From: Reyranella sp.
Lineage (GTDB): Bacteria; Pseudomonadota; Alphaproteobacteria; Reyranellales; Reyranellaceae
Reading direction: 5' to 3'
Length of the DNA stretch: 64,000 nt
Assembly (NCBI GenBank): GCA_035501235.1
Contig: DATJWN010000361.1
Location: 11,948-75,947 of the forward strand
The notes under the pieces: model-generated
Database searches by the model: none
What the model was told of the DNA's origin: nothing
The model's input: the letters and a program-made list of their open reading frames with translations, nothing else
Made by a program: the position numbers and the translations under genes
Part shown: piece by piece, positions 9,261-44,676 of the stretch
Numbering within the stretch: the stretch's first letter is position 1
Layout of the letters: every line of letters begins with the position of its first letter

Positions 9261-9719
9261 ATGAGGAAGAAAGCACTCGTTGCGGCGGTGATTGGCGCTC
9301 TGACTGCCGGTGCCCTGGTGGGCGGCACGACGATCGCGCTGGCGCAGGCCGATATCATCAAGACCCGTATCGACAACCGCAAGGCCACCGGTCCGCTGAT
9401 GCGCGAGATCAAGGCCACGGTCGATGCCAAGGGCGATGCCAAGAAGATCGTCGAGAACGCGGCGAAGCTGAAGACCCTCGAAGAGGCCTTCGACAAGATG
9501 TTCCCCGCGGGATCCGACAAGGGCGAGACGCATGCGCTGCCGGCCATCTGGACGGACACCGCGGGCTGGGCCGCCGCGACCAAGGCCGCGAACGACGCCT
9601 ATGATGCACTCGCCGTCGCCGCGGGTTCGGGCGACTACGACAAGATCGGCCCGGCCTTCGCCAATGTCGGCAAGGCATGCGGCGGCTGCCACACCAAGTT
9701 CCGCGCCAAGCTCAACTAG
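9261..9719 (+). CDS. Cytochrome c' / c556 (class II cytochrome c)
   Basis: Signal peptide MRKKALVAAVIGALT...ALAQ, ALPAIW, C-terminal CGGCHTKFR heme motif. Confidence 0.92.
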   Translation: MRKKALVAAVIGALTAGALVGGTTIALAQADIIKTRIDNRKATGPLMREIKATVDAKGDAKKIVENAAKLKTLEEAFDKMFPAGSDKGETHALPAIWTDTAGWAAATKAANDAYDALAVAAGSGDYDKIGPAFANVGKACGGCHTKFRAKLN

Positions 9720-9738
9720 GCGACGCTTCGGCAAAGAC

Positions 9739-9768
9739 AAAAGGCGACGGGTTTCCGTCGCCTTTTTT
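9739..9768. terminator. Bidirectional intrinsic terminator
   Basis: AAAAGGCGACGG-GTTT-CCGTCGCCTTTTTTT with A/T tracts on both sides, between convergent units. Confidence 0.85.
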
Positions 9769-9790
9769 TGTTGGCCCAAATTCGAACCCC

Positions 9791-9896
9791 AAAAGGGAAA
9801 GGCCGGTCGCTTGGGGAACGACCGGCCTTCCTGGGTGAGCCCGTGGCTGGGGTGGGTGGGTGAACGGCGACGGGGTGGGAAGGGAGTGTCGCCGTG
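9791..9896 (-). ncRNA. Candidate C-rich-loop small RNA, copy A (in the 3' UTR of tetR)
   Basis: Minus strand: ACGGCGAC[ACUCCCUUCCCACCCC]GUCGCCGU hairpin, C-rich linker, then GGAAGGCCGGUCG[UUCCCCAAG]CGACCGGCCUUUCC plus CUUUU. Confidence 0.5.
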
Positions 9897-9910
9897 GTGA
9901 CCTAAGTGAG

Positions 9911-10561
9911 CTAGGCCACCGCCACGGGCTGTGTGGGAACTGTGAGCGCCTGAAGCACGATCGCCTCGGCGGTGAAGCGCCAGGTGCGCGAGGCGTGGAC
10001 CGGCGACAGCCGAAGCTGCTCGCGCATGTTCATCCAGCTGTCGAGACCGAAGGCGACATCGAGAGAGTCGAGCACGAGATCGTGCGAGGCGGGATCGAGA
10101 TTGCCGAGCTCGGTGGCAAACCATGCGGCGAGACGCTCGCGCAGAAGGCGGCGCAACTGGGCGACACCGAGGCCAACAGCGGGCGCCACGCTGCGCACGC
10201 GCTCGGCGAAGTGCCACACCGGCAGCCACTCCTCGAACAGCTCGGAACGATCCGACACCAGGAGCTCGATGCGGTTGGAGAGCGGCGCCGCCATGTCGAC
10301 CGGACGATGGCCCTCGAAGGCACGGCTGACGGCGAGGTCGAAGGCCGCGGCATAGAGGTCGGCGAGGCTGGTGAAATGCTGGAAGAGCGCCCGGCTGGAA
10401 ACGCCGGCGATGGTGGCGATGGCGGCCGAGGTCGGCTCGACGTCGCCGGCCTGGATCAGGTCGAGCGTGGCCTGCACGAGGGCCTGGCGCGTGCGGAGAC
10501 CGCGTACGATGCGGCCGTCTTGCGACCGCGACACGTCGACCGGGAATCCGACAATTTTCAT
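9911..10561 (-). CDS. TetR/AcrR family transcriptional regulator
   Basis: RTRQALVQATLDLI...PTSAAIATIAGVSSRALFQHF helix-turn-helix. Confidence 0.9.
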   Translation of the reverse strand: MKIVGFPVDVSRSQDGRIVRGLRTRQALVQATLDLIQAGDVEPTSAAIATIAGVSSRALFQHFTSLADLYAAAFDLAVSRAFEGHRPVDMAAPLSNRIELLVSDRSELFEEWLPVWHFAERVRSVAPAVGLGVAQLRRLLRERLAAWFATELGNLDPASHDLVLDSLDVAFGLDSWMNMREQLRLSPVHASRTWRFTAEAIVLQALTVPTQPVAVA

Positions 10562-10626
10562 ATTAAAACCAATAGAATATGAATTGCTTTAATGACCGCA
10601 CTTTAACATGAGGCTCAGACCTCGTA

Positions 10627-10646
10627 ACTTGCAAAAATGCATATCT
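10627..10646. promoter_or_regulatory. Repeated upstream box ACTTGCAAAAATGCATATCT, copy 1
   Basis: Identical 20-mer at 11098-11117; 17-nt core again at 15646-15662; about 65 nt upstream of the tetR start. Confidence 0.6.
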
Positions 10647-10825
10647 CGAAGATTTCATGCTCTGATTTTGCTGCATTTTTTTTTTGAGATAGACAGTTTT
10701 GGGGGATCTGATGCTTCAGGCAAACAGCAAAAAGCCGCACCCCGAAGCGCCTAGTCGATTGCTTTTCCTAATTTTTCCGAGGCCGTCAACCGACCGGCTG
10801 TGGATGACGAGTGGAAGATTGGGCC

Positions 10826-10985
10826 CAGAAATGGAAAGGCCGGTCGCTTGGGGAACGACCGGCCTTCCTTGGGAGTCCGCCTGGGTGTGGGGTTATCGAA
10901 GCCTTGGGGTGTGTGGGAAGGGAGGCTTCGATGAGCGGCTTGGGGAGCCGCCGGCGGACTATGGGAAACTTTGGGTGGGCGGCGC
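10826..10985 (-). ncRNA. Candidate C-rich-loop small RNA, copy B (stand-alone; 5' end uncertain)
   Basis: Minus strand: AGUCCGCC/GGCGGACU closing stem enclosing GCGGC[UCCCCAA]GCCGC and UCGAAGCC[UCCCUUCCCACACACCCCAA]GGCUUCGA, then the same 37-nt terminal hairpin as copy A followed by AUUUCU; no credible ORF. Confidence 0.55.
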
Positions 10986-11097
10986 CTCTTGGAAAGCGCG
11001 GCCAATTCTGTGTGAAAAAAGCCTTTCAGATATGAATTACAACTAGCTACGAACGTCTCTAATGGAGAGAACTTAACAAATCAGGTGGCCGACTGTC

Positions 11098-11117
11098 ACT
11101 TGCAAAAATGCATATCT
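11098..11117. promoter_or_regulatory. Repeated upstream box ACTTGCAAAAATGCATATCT, copy 2
   Basis: Exact match to 10627-10646, in the AT-rich intergenic region upstream of sRNA candidate B. Confidence 0.6.
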
Positions 11118-11405
11118 GATTTTTGACAAATCCCTTATTTCCTAAGTATTCGCAGGCGTTTGTGACACTAGATAGTCAAAAAAGGGTAGACAGACTCCTC
11201 GAGAATTATCTCTATTTCCCCTCTTTCCAATTTAAAATCATATAGTTAGCCAATTTTTGGCGGCGCAATATCGCCGACGTCAGTGCAATTACTCTAGAAA
11301 CCAGGTTTGGGCAACAAAGGGTCGCGCTCGGGCCTGTGGGTTCGTGCCGGCTTTCCATGCTAGACGAACGCGCCCTCATTGCCTTCGCGGGGTTCGATCG
11401 TGCGC

Positions 11406-11897
11406 ATGCTTCGTTGTCGTCGTGGTGCCGTCGCCTTGTGCGTCTCGATTGCTCTCACCGGTCTCGCGCGCACCGGGCTTGCTTCGGGCATCGAGGACGG
11501 GATGAAGTCGATGCAGGCCGGCGATCTCGCGAAAGCGGAGAAGGATCTGCAGGTGCTGGCGAAGGAGCGCGATCCGCGCGCGCAGTTCCTGCTCGGCCTC
11601 TATGTCTACGGCAATCCCGATTCCAAGTTGTTCGACATGAGCAAGGCGGTGCCTCTGCTGCTCGATGCCGCCGAACGCGGCTACACGCCCGCCATGATCC
11701 CGCTCGCCGGCGCCTATGCCGACGGCAAGGGCGTGCCCAAGAGCATGAGCGAAGCCTACAAGTGGCTGGTGATCGCGCAGCGCTGGCACGTGCCGAATGC
11801 CGATCAACTCATCGGCCAGATATCGAGTTCGCTCAGACCCGACGAGATCGAACAGGCGAAGACCGCGGGCGCCGCCTTCACCTTCAAGACGAAATGA
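11406..11897 (+). CDS. Secreted Sel1-like repeat protein
   Basis: Signal peptide then AQFLLGLY, AAERGYTPAMIPLAGAYADGKGVPKS..EAYKW repeats. Confidence 0.85.
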   Translation: MLRCRRGAVALCVSIALTGLARTGLASGIEDGMKSMQAGDLAKAEKDLQVLAKERDPRAQFLLGLYVYGNPDSKLFDMSKAVPLLLDAAERGYTPAMIPLAGAYADGKGVPKSMSEAYKWLVIAQRWHVPNADQLIGQISSSLRPDEIEQAKTAGAAFTFKTK

Positions 11898-13120
11898 TCG
11901 CGGCGCGGGTGGCGCTGCACGTAGCGCTGTCCCTTGTCCTCGCCGGCGCGTTGCTGTTCGCGCACGGCAATGCGCGCGCGCAACCGGCCGATGCCTCGGA
12001 TGTGGCCCCGCCGCTGCGCCCCGCCGTCACCGCCTACCGCGCCGGCGACCTGCCGACCGCCGAGCAGGCCTTGCGCAAGCTGGTCGCGGAAGACGCCGAC
12101 GCTGAAGCCTGGCTTGGCGCGGTGCTGCTCGACCGCGGCAACAATCGCGAGGGCCTGCAGGCCTTGCAGCACGCCGTCGATCGCGGCTCGTCGGAAGGCG
12201 CGCAGCGGCTCGCACTGGTTTTCGCCGAAGGTCTTGCCGGCACGCCGCGCAACGATGCCAAGGCCGTCGCGCTCTTCCAGAAGGCCGCGGAGGCCGGCAA
12301 CCGGCGCGCCCAGCTCGATCTCGGCGTCCTCTACCTGCGCGGCCAGGGCGTCACGCGCGATCTCCTGCAGGCCCGCGCCTGGCTCGAGAAGGCCGCGAGC
12401 GACGACAATCCCTACGCGCTCTATACGCTGGGGCGCGCGCTCGAGGAGACCGAAGGCGCGGCGGCGGCCGATCCGACTCGTGCCGCCGACCTCTATCGAC
12501 GCGCCGCGGAAAAGGGCCATCCGCTCGCCGCGCTGCGCTATGGCCTCGCCCTCACCGAAGGCACCGGCATCAAGCGCGACGATGATACCGCGCAGCGTTG
12601 GCTGATCGCCGCGCAGCAAGCCGGCGTTCCGGAAGCGGCCCTCGCCATGGGCGACATGGCCGCCCGTCGCGCCGTGCGCGACAGGGCGGGGCGCGAGAAG
12701 CTGGTGCAGACCGCCGCCACCTGGTACCGCACGGCGGCCGATGCAGGCGTCGCTTCGGCACAGTACAAGCTCGCCAGCGCCTACTTCGCGGGCGCCGGCG
12801 TCGATCGCGACATGGTGCAGGCGCAGATCTGGTACAGCCGCGCCGCCCAGCAGGGACTGCCCGACGCGCAGCAGGCGCTCGGGCTTCTGCTGATCGGCGG
12901 CAAGGCCGGCGCCGCCGATCCGGTCGAAGGCTACAAGTGGCTGCTGCTGGCCGAGCGCGGCGGCTTTCCCGACGCCAAGGAAATTCGCGAGAAGATGGCG
13001 AAGCAGGTGAGCGACGCCGATCGCAAGAAGGGCGAAGCGCTGGCCAAGGCCTTCGCGCCCGTCGTGGAGCGTCCTATGGATACCGCGCCGCCGCCGCTCA
13101 AGCCGATGCCACGTCCCTGA
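11894..13120 (+). CDS. Secreted Sel1-like repeat protein (about 7 repeats)
   Basis: ATGA overlap with the previous gene; signal peptide; repeated AQLDLGVLYLRGQGV, AQYKLASAYFAGAGVDRD units. Confidence 0.9.
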   Translation: MIAARVALHVALSLVLAGALLFAHGNARAQPADASDVAPPLRPAVTAYRAGDLPTAEQALRKLVAEDADAEAWLGAVLLDRGNNREGLQALQHAVDRGSSEGAQRLALVFAEGLAGTPRNDAKAVALFQKAAEAGNRRAQLDLGVLYLRGQGVTRDLLQARAWLEKAASDDNPYALYTLGRALEETEGAAAADPTRAADLYRRAAEKGHPLAALRYGLALTEGTGIKRDDDTAQRWLIAAQQAGVPEAALAMGDMAARRAVRDRAGREKLVQTAATWYRTAADAGVASAQYKLASAYFAGAGVDRDMVQAQIWYSRAAQQGLPDAQQALGLLLIGGKAGAADPVEGYKWLLLAERGGFPDAKEIREKMAKQVSDADRKKGEALAKAFAPVVERPMDTAPPPLKPMPRP

Positions 13121-13133
13121 GCGGCCAACGCTC

Positions 13134-13598
13134 ATGACCACGCCGCCGCTTCCCCGCCAGGCGCGTCCCGACATCACGCTTGCCGTGTGCCGCGGCGCCT
13201 GCCGGCTGATGCGCCAGTCGGGCCGCTCGGTGCTGCTGGAGATGCCGCTGCCCGATGGGCGCCGCGCCGACATCTTCTGCGTCGGGCCTGCGGGCGAGCT
13301 CGTGATCGTCGAGACCAAATCCTCGATCGAGGATTGGAAGGTCGACAGCAAGTGGCCGGACTATCTCGACTGGTGCGACCTGCTCTATGTCGCGGTCCCC
13401 GTCGATTTCCCGCAGGCGCTCATCCCCCAGGAAGTCGGATTGATCGTGGCCGACGCCTATGGCGGCGAAGTCCTGCGCCACCCGCCGCGCCGGCCCGTGG
13501 CGGCCGCGCGGCGCAAGTCGTTGCTGGTCGATTGCGCGCGGCTCGCCTCGGAGCGACTCGCGCGGCTTGAAGACCCGGACTTCGTTCAGGGCCTTTAG
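13134..13598 (+). CDS. mmcB: MmcB family DNA repair protein
   Basis: [48 protein letters not shown]; PD-(D/E)XK-like family typical of Alphaproteobacteria. Confidence 0.85.
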
Positions 13599-14881
13599 CG
13601 GGCGCCGAAGGCGCGCTTCAGCTCCGGCACGAGGTCGGTCTTCTCCCACGAGAAGCTGCCGTCCTTCTCGGGCTTGCGGCCGAAATGGCCGTAGGCTGCG
13701 GTCTTCTTGTAGATCGGCTTGTTGAGCGCGAGGCCGCGGCGGATGTTGGTCGGACGCAGCGGGAAGATGTCTGCCAGCGCCTTCTCGAGCTTGCGCTCGT
13801 CGACCTTGCCGGTGCCCTGCGTGTCGACATAGAGCGACATCGGATCGGCGACGCCGATCGCGTAGGCGACCTGGATCAGGCAGCGATCGGCGAGGCCCGA
13901 GGCCACGACATTCTTGGCGAGATAGCGCGCGGCGTAGGCGGCCGAGCGGTCGACCTTGGTCGGGTCCTTGCCGGAGAAAGCGCCGCCGCCGTGCGGAGCG
14001 TAGCCGCCGTAGGTGTCGACGATGATCTTGCGGCCCGTCAGGCCGCAATCGCCGTCGGGACCGCCGACCACGAAGTTGCCGGTCGGGTTGACGAAGAAGT
14101 CCGACGCCTTCTTGGGCATCCAGCCCTCCGGCAGGGACTTCGCGACATGGTCCGCGATCATCTCCTTGATCATGGCGGAGTTGTACTTCTTGCCCTTGGC
14201 ATTGGCCTCGCGGTGCTGCGTGGAGACGACGACCTTGGTCGCGCCGACGGCCTTGCCATTGACGTAGCGCACCGTCACCTGGCTCTTGGCGTCGGGCTGA
14301 AGGTCGCCGAGCTCGCCCGAGCGGCGGGCCTTGCTCAGCACTTCCAGGATCTTGTGGCTGAAGTAGATCGGGGCCGGCATGAACGAGCCCTTCTCGTATT
14401 CCTCCGAATCGCGGCAGGCGAAGCCGAACATCAGGCCCTGGTCGCCGGCGCCTTCCTGCTCGCCGAGATTGCCGCCGTGCTTCTTGGCATTCACGCCCAT
14501 GGCGATGTCGGGCGACTGGCCGTGCAGCAGCACCTCGACGTCGGCGCCGTGGAAGGAGAAGCCATCCTGGTCGTAGCCGATGTCTTCCACGACCTCGCGC
14601 GCGATCTCGGTCAGCGCCTCGCGGTTGACGACCGCATGCTTGCCGAACTTCTTCATGTAGGGCGCAGAAGCGCGGCCTTCGCCCGCGATCACGATCTTGT
14701 TCGTGGTCACCAGCGTCTCGCAGCCCAGCCGCGTGTTGGCGTGGCTGTCGTCGGCGATGCCGAGCTTCACGTCGTTGGCGATGAACGCGTCGAGGATCGC
14801 ATCCGAGATCTGGTCGCTGACCTTGTCCGGATGGCCTTCGGAAACGGATTCAGAGGTGAAGAGATAGTCCTTGAGCGCCAC
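13595..14881 (-). CDS. metK: S-adenosylmethionine synthetase
   Basis: [42 protein letters not shown]; GTG start. Confidence 0.98.
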
Positions 14882-14933
14882 AGCACCCTCCCAAGTGTCA
14901 CTGGACTCCGGGCAGGGCGGGTGAGCCGCACGT

Positions 14934-14986
14934 CCGGCTTAGCCTTTGTTATCGCGGTGGCAAGTCGTCCAAATCCGTCCGCGGCG
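14934..14986 (-). promoter_or_regulatory. SAM-II (SAM-alpha) riboswitch upstream of metK
   Basis: Minus strand CGCGG-ACGGATTTGGACGACTTGCCA-CCGCG-ATAACAAAG-GCTAAGCCGG: P1 stem with the GAUUUG, UUGC and GCUAA hallmarks. Confidence 0.7.
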
Positions 14987-15085
14987 ACGTCCCTCCGGAC
15001 CAAGCCGGGCGACGCCGCGCCGTTAAAAACTCTAAATGTCGGGGGAAATCAAGACCCCTCCCTCTCGGGAGAGGCGCGAGGCCCT

Positions 15086-15544
15086 TCAGCGGCCTTTGCG
15101 GCCGCCCAGGACCTCGGCATGGCTGGCCGCACCCACGGCCTTCACCATCTCGAAGATGCGCTTGCGCACGCGGCCTTCGCGGATCTTGTAGTAGGCGCGC
15201 ACCAGCTCCAGCGTCTCGCGCTTGATGAGCGGATCCTTCTCCTGCTCGAAGGGCGTCGCCGCCTCACCGAAGCCGCCTTTGCGGCCGCGGCCCGACATCG
15301 GGCGGCCGGCCAGCGCATTCGACGGCATCTCGTCGAAGAAATAGGAAACAGGAACGTCGAGCACCTTGGCGAACTCGAAGAGGCGGCTCGAACCGATGCG
15401 GTTGGAGCCACGCTCGTACTTCTGGATCTGCTGGAAGGTCAGTCCGACAGCCGTGCCGAGCTTCTCCTGGCTCATGCCAAGAAGCGTGCGCCGTTGGCGC
15501 ATTCTGGCTCCGACGTGAACGTCAACCGGATGCGATCTTGCCAT
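15086..15544 (-). CDS. phrR: XRE/Cro-cI family HTH regulator (PhrR/PraR-like)
   Basis: HPVDVHVGARMRQRRTLLGMSQEKLGTAVGLTFQQIQKYERGSNRIGSSRL; conserved position between lnt and metK. Confidence 0.8.
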   Translation of the reverse strand: MARSHPVDVHVGARMRQRRTLLGMSQEKLGTAVGLTFQQIQKYERGSNRIGSSRLFEFAKVLDVPVSYFFDEMPSNALAGRPMSGRGRKGGFGEAATPFEQEKDPLIKRETLELVRAYYKIREGRVRKRIFEMVKAVGAASHAEVLGGRKGR

Positions 15545-15645
15545 GGGTCTTGATCCCTCTTGGTCTTGGTTCGGCTAGCAGCATGCCGTTGTAAAAACCA
15601 ACGCGCCAGATACCATGGATTGCATCTGGTTCGCGCCGCCTTGTG

Positions 15646-15662
15646 TGCAAAAATGCATATCT
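15646..15662. promoter_or_regulatory. Repeated upstream box TGCAAAAATGCATATCT, copy 3
   Basis: Exact 17-nt match to the two boxes near 10630 and 11101; about 100 nt upstream of the XRE start, same orientation relative to the gene. Confidence 0.6.
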
Positions 15663-15719
15663 ACACGTCAAGGCTGCATATGACATATGACGGCCTTGCC
15701 AAGATTGCAAGCTCAACCT

Positions 15720-24608: not shown

Positions 24609-25046
24609 TCATTTCTGCCGGTCTGACTTTCCATCCAGGGGCACGCCGTAAAGCTCAAGCCGGTGGCCGACAAGCCGATATCCGGCCTTTTCGGCGATGC
24701 GGCGCTGCAGTTCCTCGATCTCGTCGTTGTGGAATTCCACGACCCTTCCCGTCTGGATGTCGATCAGGTGGTCGTGGTGCTCCTCGGGCGTTTCCTCGTA
24801 GCGGGCTCGGCCATCGCCGAAATCGTGCTTGGCGAGGATGCCCGCCTCCTCGAACAGCCGCACGGTGCGATAGACAGTGGCGATCGAGATGTTGGGATCC
24901 ACGGCCGTCGCGCGCTTGTGCAGGGCCTCGACATCGGGATGGTCCGACGATTCGGAAAGGACGCGCGCAATCACGCGGCGCTGGTCGGTCATCTTGAGAC
25001 CGCGCTCGGCGCAGAGTGCCTCGAGCTTGGACTTGTGGTCGGCCAT
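24609..25046 (-). CDS. fur: Fur family metal-responsive regulator (Fur/Mur)
   Basis: MTDQRRVIARVL, HPDVE, SIATVYRTVRLFEEAG, HHDHLID. Confidence 0.93.
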   Translation of the reverse strand: MADHKSKLEALCAERGLKMTDQRRVIARVLSESSDHPDVEALHKRATAVDPNISIATVYRTVRLFEEAGILAKHDFGDGRARYEETPEEHHDHLIDIQTGRVVEFHNDEIEELQRRIAEKAGYRLVGHRLELYGVPLDGKSDRQK

Positions 25047-25092
25047 GTCAGGCCACCCTACACCGGCCGGTGGACGGGGTATAGTTGGCGCC

Positions 25093-25326
25093 ATGTCGGC
25101 AGCCCCTGACCAGTCGATCGATATCACGGGCGAGGTTTGTCCCATGACCTTCGTGCGCACCAAGCTCAGGCTGGAGCGGATGAGATCGGGCGACGTCTTG
25201 AGCGTGCGCTTGCGCGGCGAGGAGCCACTGCGCAACGTCCCCAAGGCTGCCCGAGACGAGGGCCACACCATCTTGGGGATTGTAGCCGACGGCAATGACC
25301 ATATCGTGACGATCCGCGTTAAGTGA
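25093..25326 (+). CDS. tusA: TusA/SirA-like sulfurtransferase
   Basis: IDITGEVCPMTFVRTKLRLE...SGDVLSV; 77 aa. Confidence 0.82.
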   Translation: MSAAPDQSIDITGEVCPMTFVRTKLRLERMRSGDVLSVRLRGEEPLRNVPKAARDEGHTILGIVADGNDHIVTIRVK

Positions 25327-38596: not shown

Positions 38597-39202
38597 TCAG
38601 TCCCTACGCAGCATGAACACCGCCTGCTCGCCGATCAGGTTGGAGAGCAGGGGCGGCAGGTGGATGCGGTTGCTGTTGCGGTCGAGCACGATGGCGCGCT
38701 CGATGCGCACGCCCATGTCGCGGCAGAGCGCGCGGAAATCGTCGATGCTGCAGAGATGGATGTTGGGCGTGTCGTACCATTTGTGCGGCAAGGACGGCGT
38801 CTCGGGCATGCGCCCGCCGAACACCAGCCTGAACCGCACCTGCCAGTGCGCGAAATTCGGAAAGGACACGATCGCGCGCTTGCCCACGCGCAGCATCTGC
38901 TCCAGCACCCTGCGCGGTTCGCGCGTGGCCTGCAGGGTCTGGCTCAGGATCACATAGTCGAAGGCATCGTCGGGATAGTCGCGCAGGTCGGTGTCGGCGT
39001 CGCCCTGGATCACCGAAAGCCCGTTGGCGACGCAGGCGTTCACGCCGGCCTGGCTGAGCTCCATGCCGCGGGCATCGACGCTCTTGGCGACCAGCGAGGC
39101 GAGCAGCGCGCCGTCGCCGCAGCCGACGTCGAGCGCGCGGCCGCTCTGCACCATGTCGGCGATGATCTGCAGGTCGACGCGAATGGGGGCGGCGAGGCTC
39201 AT
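38597..39202 (-). CDS. metW: Methionine biosynthesis protein MetW
   Basis: [33 protein letters not shown]; coupled to metX. Confidence 0.95.
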
Positions 39203-40371
39203 GCGAGACCTCGCACGGCAGCCGCGCCCTTCAGGAAGCCCGCGAGCGTGCGGAACATCTCCGGCTCGTCGAGCAGGAAGGCGTCATGGCCCTTGTCGGT
39301 CTCGACCTCGACGAAGGAAACGTTGGCCGCCGCAGCGTTCAGCGCGTGCACGATGGCGCGGTTCTCGCGCGTCGGGAACAGCCAGTCCGAGGTGAAGGAG
39401 ATCGAGCAGAAGCGCGTGGAGCTGCCCTTGAAGGCGTTGGCCAGCACGCCGCCATGCGCGCCCGCGAGATCGAAATAGTCCATGGCGCGCGTGATGTAGA
39501 GGTAGCTGTTGGCGTCGAAGCGGTCGACGAAGGTCGAGCCCTGATGGCGGAGATAGCTCTCGACCTGGAAGTCGGCGTCGAAGCCGAAGCCCAGCGCGTT
39601 GCGGTCCTGCAGGTTGCGGCCGAACTTGCGCTGCAGCGCCTGCTCCGAAAGGTAGGTGATGTGCGCGGTCATGCGCGCCACCGCGAGCCCGCGCTCGGGC
39701 GCCGTGCCATGCAGGCGATAGTCGCCGCCCTTCCACTCGGGATCGGCCATGATCGCCTGGCGACCGACCTCGTGGAACGCGATGTTCTGCGCCGAATGAC
39801 GCGCGGCGCAGGCGATCGGCACGGCGGCGAAGACACGCCTGGGATAGCTCGCCGCCCACTCCAGCACCTGCATGCCGCCCATCGAGCCGCCGATCACGCA
39901 GAAGAGCTGCTCGATGCCGAGATGATCGATCAGGGCTGCCTGCGCGCGCACCATGTCGGCGATGGTCACCACCGGGAAGCGAAGGTTCCAGGGCTGGCCC
40001 GACGACGGGTCGCGCGCCAACGGCCCCGTGGTGCCCATGCAGCCGCCCAGCACGTTGGAGCAGATGATGAAGTAGCGCGCGGGGTCGAGCACCTTGCCCG
40101 GCCCCACCAGGCTCTCCCACCAGCCGGGCTTGCCGGTCACGGGGCTGTCGTCGGCGACGAACTGATCGCCCGTCAGCGCGTGGCAGATCAGCACGGCATT
40201 CGACTTCGCGGCATTGAGCGCGCCGTAGGTCTGGTAGGCGACGCGAAACGGCCCGAGATCGACGCCGCAGTCGAGCCGCATCGGCCGCTCGGTGCCCAGG
40301 ACCGCGTGGCGGCACTGGGCCAGCGCCTTGCGCTCGGCCTCGGTCAGCTCGTCCTTCAGATCGTCCAGCAC
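39199..40371 (-). CDS. metX: Homoserine O-acyltransferase
   Basis: CHALTGD, SNVLGGC, GGSMGGM, YLSE, GHDAFL; GTG start after GGAG. Confidence 0.96.
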
Positions 40372-40385
40372 AGCGCTCTCCAAAC

Positions 40386-40419
40386 GAAAAGCCCCCGACC
40401 GACAGGACGGGGGCTTTTT
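40386..40419 (-). terminator. Intrinsic terminator (attenuator) in the metX leader
   Basis: AAAAGCCCCCG-loop-CGGGGGCUUUUCGUUU between the riboswitch and the ribosome-binding site. Confidence 0.8.
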
Positions 40420-40427
40420 CGAGCGCT

Positions 40428-40484
40428 CCGACCTTTTAGCGGGGATTAACGTGGCCGCAAGCCGGTCGGCTCAAATTCCACGGA
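40428..40484 (-). promoter_or_regulatory. SAM-II (SAM-alpha) riboswitch upstream of metXW
   Basis: CGUGG-AAUUUGAGCCGACCGGCUUGCGG-CCACG-UUAAUCCCC-GCUAAAA-GGUCGG; P1 stem plus CCGACC/GGUCGG pseudoknot pairing. Confidence 0.9.
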
Positions 40485-40585
40485 TGGGCCTCTATAAGGG
40501 CCGCACCCGCGCCTTGCAACGGCTTTCCTTTGCGCCCGCTCCCCGGACGTAGTATCGCCTCGCCCGCACAGGACTTTACCGATTT

Positions 40586-44055: not shown

Positions 44056-44676
44056 TCAGTGGTTGCCGGCGAAGATCGCCTTGACGATGAAGCGCCATTC
44101 CTCGCGCGCCTGGTCGACGGTGAGGCCGAGCCGCTCGCGCAGCACGATCCAGCTCTCCGGCGTCAGCGACATGGCGAGCGCGTTGATCGCCCGCTCGCGC
44201 CGCTCGCCCGGAAGGGAGGCCAGCTCCTGGTCGAAGGACTTGCAGATTTCCTCGCGGTTCTCCGCGTAGATCTGGCGGGTCTTGTCGGCAGCCTCGGACG
44301 AGCGCTGGCGCAACGCCTCGACGAAAGTCCACATCGGCCGCAACTTTTCATAGCGCGCGGCGCGAATGGCGATGACGCCGGCAATACGCTCGTCGAGCGC
44401 CGACATCGCGCCGTCCTGCGCCGGCTCGTTCGCCATCGTACCGAGCACTCGGCTCAGCACCGCGACATAGAGCTCGGCGGTGTCGGCGAAATGCTGGAAA
44501 ACGGTGCGCGCCGAGACGCCGGCGAGTTTGGCGATGTCGCGCACGATCGGCGCCACCTCGCCTTCCATTGCCAGCGACAGGGTCGAGGAAACGATCGCTT
44601 CGCGTGTGCGGGCGACCCTGTCGCCACGACCGGCGGGCTGGGCTTGCGGCTGACGGCTCGTCAATTCGACTTCCAT
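44056..44676 (-). CDS. TetR/AcrR family regulator, paralog of 9911..10561
   Basis: RTREAIVSSTLSL...PIVRDIAKLAGVSARTVFQHF. Confidence 0.9.
   Translation of the reverse strand: MEVELTSRQPQAQPAGRGDRVARTREAIVSSTLSLAMEGEVAPIVRDIAKLAGVSARTVFQHFADTAELYVAVLSRVLGTMANEPAQDGAMSALDERIAGVIAIRAARYEKLRPMWTFVEALRQRSSEAADKTRQIYAENREEICKSFDQELASLPGERRERAINALAMSLTPESWIVLRERLGLTVDQAREEWRFIVKAIFAGNH

Follow-up and report, generated by a model that had tools for sequence, protein, structure and literature searches.

Several described regulatory systems resemble, each in part, a 17-bp box that lies upstream of three transcription units in a 64,000-nt stretch of Reyranella sp. DNA (GenBank assembly GCA_035501235.1, contig DATJWN010000361.1, positions 11,948 to 75,947; hereafter the window). 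The units are a gene for a TetR-like protein (tetR), a structured small RNA (sRNA-B) and a gene for an XRE-family regulator. Among described sites, the LuxR/TraR boxes are one point of comparison; the tra box of TraR, ATGTGCAGATCTGCACAT, is centred near −42. Another is the PraR/PhrR/CdxA regulon. Throughout the alphaproteobacteria a single XRE regulator, PraR/PhrR/CdxA, has stayed between lnt and metK; in model species it controls adhesion, biofilm formation and symbiosis, and its own control varies by lineage, with CinS in Rhizobium and RtrC in Caulobacter. SELEX with two PraR proteins gave the site CAAC-N5-GTTG (PMC5527310), and the CdxA matrix from chromatin immunoprecipitation sequencing (ChIP-seq) reads wCAAC(C/T)... 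(PMC10688885). In Rhizobium leguminosarum PraR binds its own promoter, and MEME run on PraR-bound promoters returned TTGCAA (PMC4149787). Caulobacter cdxA is switched on by another lineage-restricted factor, RtrC (PMC10688885), whose ChIP-seq motif is the pseudo-palindrome ACCC-N5-GGGT. Further relatives in layout are the operator of AtsR, a TetR-family protein of Corynebacterium (TGCAA-N2-TTGCA; PMC9210681), and the CRP/FNR-type NnrR box, ctTTGcgnnnncgCAAag (PMC1274295).

Comparison across related genomes indicates that the Reyranella box is a genuine, lineage-specific (Reyranella-type) cis-regulatory element common to the three promoters. As to its reader, the favoured interpretation, at a probability of roughly 0.45, is that the box is the site for one conserved trans-acting transcription factor, itself putative and not encoded beside its sites. 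This would add a third input to the PraR/CdxA ortholog, in the common soil genus Reyranella, shared with two sibling sRNAs, and would wire a conserved regulator to lineage-specific sRNAs. The resulting module (one 17-bp site, three promoters, a putative reader) would be compact, and it cautions against assigning a motif to the nearest regulator.

The box and its setting

The 17-mer TGCAAAAATGCATATCT occurs exactly three times in the window, at 10630-10646, 11101-11117 and 15646-15662, always on the forward strand; no further copy is found there, even when three mismatches are allowed. Dinucleotide-preserving shuffles give an expectation of 0.03 copies, and three copies were reached in 0 of 100 shuffles. 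An earlier annotation made from the letters alone (the sequence-only reading) had pointed out these three copies as improbable by chance, and had noted a 20-nt identity between the first two (ACTTGCAAAAATGCATATCT); both observations hold, and over a longer stretch the first two copies match at 22 of 23 nt (family D4). In gene orientation, that is on the minus strand, the box reads AGATATGCATTTTTGCA and its consensus AGRTATGCRNWTTTGCA.

All three copies lie in intergenic spacers of 35–51% GC, against ~67% for the genome, and each is upstream of a minus-strand unit, again as first described. Copy 1 precedes the TetR-like gene (9911-10561), 69 nt from its ATG at 10561. Copy 2 precedes sRNA-B, ~38 nt from the predicted start of the RNA at 11063 and ~129 nt from its conserved core. 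Copy 3 sits in the spacer between lnt and the XRE gene (15086-15544), 102 nt from the ATG at 15544.

The box consists of a 12-bp pseudo-palindrome, TGCRNW|TTTGCA, and an invariant 5-bp distal extension, AGRTA. The TGCA-N4-TGCA core of the sequence-only reading is thus present in the window, while its second TGCA is TGCR in relatives. Of the extra half-sites listed there, ATATGCA at 15674-15680 is kept in most relatives, and TGCAT near 10675 is not conserved as such. That reading overlooked two conserved inverted copies of the distal part of the box, with cores AGATAGACA at 10687-10695 and AGATAGTCA at 11170-11178. They belong to degenerate partner sites on the plus strand, AGATAGACAGTTTTGGG (10687-10703), 40 nt from copy 1, and AGATAGTCAAAAAAGGG (11170-11186), 52 nt from copy 2. 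Both partners are kept in relatives, and the distance from the tetR box to its partner is 41–43 nt where measured (L001, L148; L and P numbers are our handles for related loci). In 64 kb, AGATAKNCA occurs in only five places, the three boxes and the two inverted partners, against 0.74 expected.

The stretches between boxes and partners hold short conserved blocks of their own: [T/C]AAAATCAG ~18 nt upstream of the box at tetR (within 10647-10686), and TTAGGA[A/T] ~21 nt upstream of it at sRNA-B (within 11118-11169). These could be additional promoters or binding sites.

Conservation in related genomes

The box is kept at all three orthologous places in ~15 related Reyranella-type genomes, in every relative for which the region is available, and its flanks have diverged. 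It is found upstream of the XRE gene in the window, L001-L008, L084, L086, L100, L136, L139, L142, L147 and L148, and upstream of both sRNA-B and tetR in the window, L001, L003, L004, L097, L139, L142, L147, L148, L227 and L228; all three boxes occur together in the window, L001, L003, L004, L139, L142, L147 and L148. In L136 the gene order after metK is different, and the box upstream of the XRE gene is there all the same.

The cross-genome consensus is AG[A/g]TATGC[A/G]N[T/A]TTTGCA, with 14 invariant positions, among them four G/C pairs. Information content, taken over 37 distinct sites, is 1.82 bits per position in the box and 0.40 and 0.26 in the flanks, figures that are partly circular, the sites having been picked by pattern; alignments of the whole syntenic spacers yield the same isolated conserved block. 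The core in L100 is a perfect TGCAAATTTGCA. Elsewhere in ~232 kb of related DNA no other copy of the box was found (~0.4 Mb was scanned in all). A pattern scan of genome contigs with AGATATGCNNNTTTGCA gave, among the matches listed, mostly chance hits in unrelated AT-rich genomes, together with four more orthologous loci.

Since lnt of the window is only 67–71% identical to that of the relatives, these represent different species. XRE-type sites have nothing except the box in common with the tetR- and sRNA-B-type sites, and its conservation there is therefore not that of a copied promoter. Invariance of the box, at this divergence of lnt and with the TetR-like proteins down to 59% identity, calls for a reader of conserved specificity. 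An identical XRE protein is found in loci from soil and water metagenomes and from metagenome-assembled genomes.

The tetR and sRNA-B promoters

From the box as far as the start site, these two promoters are paralogs of each other. In both, the box is followed after 2 nt by T.AC (resembling a −35 element), an extended −10 element of the form TGnTAnnnT and a conserved CATTA[A/G]AG. Of 21 sites of the tetR and sRNA-B type, 20 have a spacer of 21–23 nt between box and TGnTAnnnT; its length is kept, its sequence is not. In the window, copy 1 ends 21 nt before the predicted extended −10 of tetR, TGTTAAAGT (10600-10608, minus strand), with the predicted +1 at the A of 10593 in the conserved CATTAAAG. 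Copy 2 ends 22 nt before that of sRNA-B, TGTTAAGTT (11070-11078, minus strand), with the predicted +1 at the A of 11063 in the conserved CATTAGAG.

Lying 21–23 nt upstream of the extended −10, the box abuts the −35 region (~−37 to −54). If the TGnTAnnnT hexamer occupies −12 to −7, the centre of the dyad falls at −42.5 for tetR and −43.5 for sRNA-B, as predicted from conservation; activators of class II have dyads near −41.5/−42.5, a position that the XRE site does not fit. Of the earlier proposal of a "shared operator or promoter", what is supported is a selected cis-element common to the tetR, sRNA-B and XRE promoters. Since it cannot accommodate a −35/−10 pair, the box is not a promoter in its own right. 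A scanner for consensus promoters reported nothing above threshold in the tetR, sRNA-B or XRE promoter regions. Nor does the box have the features of a sigma-54 promoter (GG and GC 10 bp apart, TGGCAC-N5-TTGCA); it contains no GG, and its two GC are 8 bp apart.

Transcript data come from metagenome and metatranscriptome contigs, and transcription starts are predictions from conservation. Metatranscriptome contigs of sRNA-B homologs reach at most 85 nt upstream of the conserved core. This is compatible with a start ~91 nt upstream of the core and gives no hint of transcription through the box. Contigs of one run, X50, cross the promoter; this run is probably DNA.

These promoters bear on an account in which no protein other than RNA polymerase is needed. 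UP elements are A/T-rich, lie at −40 to −60 and have loose sequence requirements. The location of the box at ~−37 to −54, its central T-tract and its fixed orientation and spacing to the −10 would suit such an intrinsic contact for the alpha subunit of RNA polymerase, boosting the tetR and sRNA-B promoters. Against this, the invariant positions with their four G/C pairs exceed the constraint on an UP element, the XRE box has no promoter at the corresponding downstream distance, and the conserved inverted partners are left unexplained; an UP-like role is improbable.

Less probable still is that the box acts as RNA, as an AU-rich leader motif of three transcripts (for example a processing or protein-binding site). 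It faces the same way with respect to each of the three units, falls within the predicted transcript at the XRE gene and, in many tetR-type regions, is preceded at 18–21 nt by hexamers resembling a −10 element. At tetR and sRNA-B, however, conserved extended −10 promoters lie downstream of it, and the ends of the sRNA-B homolog contigs match a start at that place. The C-rich sRNAs show no complementarity to the box, and the presence of inverted partner copies suggests that it is recognised as DNA.

The XRE gene and its promoter

The XRE-family regulator (15086-15544, minus strand) lies between lnt and metK, and by this lnt-XRE-metK synteny it is the ortholog of PraR/PhrR/CdxA (PMC10688885). 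The spacer upstream of it would contain a sigma-70-type promoter at 15674-15712 (minus strand), as judged from conservation. An invariant GCTTGC (within GCTTGCAAT, 15704-15712), the putative −35, stands directly after the lnt stop codon; 16–17 nt past it, TA[A/G][A/G]GT is found in 7 of 10 species (the −10-like element, 15682-15687 in the window), followed by the conserved ATATGCA at 15674-15680. With a start near 15675, copy 3 would occupy ~+13 to +29. In the aligned syntenic spacers there is no conserved −10 element downstream of the XRE box. In terms of the predicted promoters, tetR and sRNA-B thus have the box upstream of the −35, and the XRE gene has it downstream of +1.

The sequence-only reading had named the XRE protein as one possible reader. 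In that case the protein, or a near-identical paralog, would bind the box, regulating itself and controlling the sRNAs and tetR. PraR does bind its own promoter in R. leguminosarum, the MEME motif TTGCAA (PMC4149787) is present in two of the three window boxes, and an invariant helix-turn-helix would fit an invariant site; in 49 orthologs of the class, that of the XRE proteins (SQEKLG..G.TFQQIQKYE.G.NR) shows at least 90% conservation. The published sites are nevertheless of another kind, CAAC-N5-GTTG (PMC5527310) and wCAAC(C/T)...; the box holds neither CAAC nor GTTG, and has A at matrix positions 5–6, where the probability of A is 0. TTGCAA is not conserved: across genomes TTTGCA may be followed by A, G or C. 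Despite the same helix-turn-helix, the box is absent from all 46 syntenic lnt-XRE-metK promoters outside the Reyranella group (0 of 46; best match at least 3 weighted mismatches), and from the promoters of the XRE paralogs that were checked. A separate candidate for the autoregulatory operator, CAACGGCATGCTG, lies at 15579-15591 (minus strand), one mismatch away from CAAC-N5-GTTG; in relatives only its CAAC half is kept. CAAC-type sites are found in 9 of 49 orthologous XRE promoters, with 3.1 expected (a roughly three-fold enrichment). In view of the published CAAC-type sites and of the absence of the box from orthologous promoters, the XRE protein is a very unlikely reader, and this part of the earlier proposal finds no support. 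What the locus does share with the PraR/PhrR/CdxA regulon is that one target of the box is the syntenic praR/cdxA ortholog; the box itself is neither CAAC-N5-GTTG nor the ACCC-N5-GGGT of RtrC (which was tried and is not contained in it), and it is confined to Reyranella-type genomes.

Some further observations concern the XRE family. Sites matching CAACNNNNNGTTG with at most one mismatch number 35 in the window (13.9 expected; largest count in shuffles 23). Codon usage, which is lost in the shuffles, may account for this excess; so may a large number of weak sites of the PraR/CdxA type. Several paralogs 88–93% identical to the syntenic XRE protein occur in Reyranella-type genomes, in unrelated contexts (L129-L135, L137, L138, L145, L146), in L145 among mostly small genes without domain matches, and the set resembles the XRE radiation described for Caulobacter. 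The homologs P0014, P0092, P0024, P0049, P0063 and P0010 were considered as syntenic orthologs and set aside as paralogs; their contexts are unrelated, and the box is absent where it was checked.

The TetR-like protein as a candidate reader

The TetR-like protein (216 aa; 9911-10561, minus strand) was the other reader suggested earlier. On this account the box is its operator, through which it would regulate its own gene together with sRNA-A, the sibling RNA that follows it, and control sRNA-B and the XRE gene. The box stands in its own and in the neighbouring promoter, all known sites are within 5–9 kb of the gene, and box and TetR orthogroup are restricted to the same lineage. The dyad expected of a TetR operator, TGCRNW|TTTGCA, precedes the tetR ATG by 69 nt in every genome examined, the paired inverted sites would suit a pair of dimers, and a position of +13 to +29 at the predicted XRE promoter would suit a repressor. 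The 12-bp core also has the geometry of the proven AtsR operator (PMC9210681), the only match in a literature search for the core 12-mers. The two sites have in common a 12-bp dyad of like composition and a place in the promoter region of a tetR-type gene, and the exact TGCAATTTTGCA occurs in the sRNA-B boxes of L097, L142, L147, L148 and L228. The two regulators are unrelated, however, and the Reyranella site differs in having a degenerate left half (TGCRNW), in lying upstream of the −35 and in showing no co-variation with the local TetR-like protein's recognition helix.

In the window group this helix reads GVSSRALFQHF; its counterpart is GVPGPVLFQHF in L148 (69% identity) and GIAREEILRAF in L228/P0241 (59%), the latter an ortholog with the same Sel1-tetR-cytochrome c'-b561 synteny. 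The changed residues align with the base-contacting Q38-P39-T40 of TetR in the TetR-tetO structure. The three boxes of L148 and the two of L228 nevertheless all match the consensus, with the same spacing to TGnTAnnnT, and three versions of helix 3 thus accompany identical boxes. At its own predicted promoter, moreover, the site is upstream of the −35 and not over the −35, −10 or +1, and it is asymmetric, AGRTA being invariant on a single side. The protein matches TetR_N weakly (24 bits), and many orthologs have no Pfam match. What is conserved is an Arg-rich N-terminal arm (MKIVGFPVDVSRSQDGRIVRGLRTRQ) and the C-terminal domain, both more so than the helix-turn-helix; given the better conserved arm, the protein may still make some form of contact with DNA. 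As specific reader of the box, however, it is disfavoured, and it may not be a conventional sequence-specific repressor. The earlier suggestion is weakened, and we consider an operator for this protein unlikely.

The orthogroup is small. Among 1.84 billion proteins it has only 19 representatives at E ≤ 1e-30, mostly fragments of one cluster; matches beyond it drop to 34–39% identity, and the source names of the homologs are Reyranella or Enhydrobacter. In the most distant ortholog the recognition helix turns acidic (AREEILRAF).

A proposed reader encoded elsewhere

In the favoured interpretation, a putative factor encoded elsewhere in the genome would read the box at three promoters, which would form one small regulon: the TetR-like gene with sRNA-A in its 3' untranslated region (UTR), the sibling sRNA-B, and the PraR/CdxA-type XRE regulator. 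At tetR and sRNA-B the dyad centre of ~−42.5/−43.5 would be the classical class-II position, with the inverted copy 40–52 bp upstream as an auxiliary site. The factor would there contact RNA polymerase and tune initiation, activation being the likelier direction. At the XRE gene, a factor bound ~13–29 bp past the predicted start would hinder transcription.

Several points count against this interpretation. The −10 element from which the class-II position is reckoned is a prediction, and a promoter with an extended −10 and a partial −35 may need no activator. A site upstream of the −35 in two promoters and downstream of +1 in the third demands a dual-function factor or a pure repressor. A local regulator would be the simpler explanation for the grouping of all known sites within 5–9 kb of the tetR-like gene. 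The reader is putative, and the related DNA over which its sites were counted amounts to ~0.4 Mb. The window proteins that were screened for domains (64 kb of genome) include no LuxR-type protein or other cognate class-II regulator.

A variant in which one factor is put to opposite uses would activate the sibling sRNAs and the TetR-like gene from the class-II position and block the ancient PraR/CdxA regulator of adhesion and biofilm formation at a site slightly downstream of its promoter, with the "TetR" as a non-sequence-specific, signal-sensing partner or modulator. Drift of the helix-turn-helix, with the Arg-rich arm and C-terminal domain fixed, suggests that the protein is perhaps no sequence-specific binder; as a whole, the variant is quite unlikely.

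As to the family of an unlinked reader, the TGCA-N4-TGCA core also recurs in the sites of known dimeric regulators, in the operator of AtsR (PMC9210681) and in the tra box of TraR. LuxR/TraR boxes share with the Reyranella box this core and, if the predicted starts hold, a dyad centre near −42.5 that abuts or overlaps the −35 region. The L100 copy, ATGTGCAAATTTGCATAT, matches the tra box at 15 of 18 positions, which is a lead and not a test. The differences are that the outer arms of the Reyranella box are asymmetric, with AGRTA on one side only, that the domain-screened part of the window holds no LuxR-type gene, and that the XRE site is not class-II. The NnrR box has the same 5-4-5 layout and TGC...GCA (nTGCA-N4-YGCAT) and a class-II-like distance from the −10, and genes for cytochrome c' and cytochrome b561 are among the neighbours of the Reyranella boxes; the outer T and A of its TTG/CAA arms, by contrast, are not conserved in the Reyranella box. 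No FNR/NnrR-type site is found between the b561 and cytochrome c' genes, and TTG-N8-CAA is not enriched in the window.

Other candidates were tried and rejected. For NsrR (Rrf2; gATGyAT-N5-ATrCATc) the box offers a single ATGCAT half, which is ATGCGT in many relatives, and the invariant TTTGCA would be unexplained. Promoters of the extracytoplasmic function (ECF) type do not fit, and a comparison by eye with the consensuses of sigma-54, EcfG, CtrA, LexA, IHF, Fis, Lrp, LacI/PurR-type, marbox and Fur/Mur sites likewise gave no fit.

sRNA-A and sRNA-B

sRNA-B (10826-11063, minus strand) has a core at ~10826-10972 with C-rich loops and an intrinsic terminator, and a variable 5' leader of ~90 nt. 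Its sibling sRNA-A (9790-9905, minus strand) follows the tetR stop codon immediately and lacks a box. For these reasons it is probably made from the tetR transcript, as part of the 3' UTR, and both siblings would therefore be under box-containing promoters. The two have the terminator stem-loop and the C-rich loops (CCCUUCCCACACACCCC, UCCCCAA) in common. Their folding is consistent across species, with base pairs kept through two-sided changes (three in sRNA-B, six in sRNA-A), which bears out the earlier description of sibling sRNAs; the two are real, structured RNAs. Over 9790-11063, Rfam gives no match at the gathering threshold or at E ≤ 5, weak noise aside.

In their arrangement the RNAs resemble tandem or sibling trans-acting sRNAs such as AbcR1/2 and the CcsR "cuckoo" RNAs, where two related sRNAs with C-rich loops come under shared upstream control and one is borne on an mRNA 3' end; they differ in lacking an Rfam match at the gathering threshold, and in their sequences and promoter motif. 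By analogy, the C-rich loops resemble anti-Shine-Dalgarno loops and suggest ribosome-binding sites as targets.

In L228, sRNA-A is missing after the tetR stop codon (1940-2010), and in L003 the ~90-nt leader of sRNA-B is deleted (12450-12490), which places the conserved core directly after the promoter. A second terminator-like hairpin, GCGCTTCGGGGTGC then GGCTTTTTGC (10737-10750), lies within 10721-10825 (minus strand), ~75 nt past the terminator of sRNA-B and shortly ahead of the inverted partner site; the interval between the two terminators could be a further short transcript, or the hairpin a back-up terminator. At 9673-9769 (plus strand) there is a sub-threshold Rfam match to ar15 of the AbcR family (28.5 bits; gathering score 40). 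It covers the cytochrome c' gene's 3' end and terminator, and is probably driven by the latter.

Other features of the window

A Fur-family regulator (24609-25295, minus strand) and a second TetR-family regulator (44056-44676, minus strand) are encoded in the window, neither with a box nearby. metK (13595-14881) has no riboswitch match. A SAM-II (SAM_alpha) riboswitch is found at 40416-40491 (minus strand; 45.8 bits), just upstream of an open reading frame at 39199-40383 that is followed by a MetW-domain gene (38597-39202); the three together are probably a metX-metW operon.

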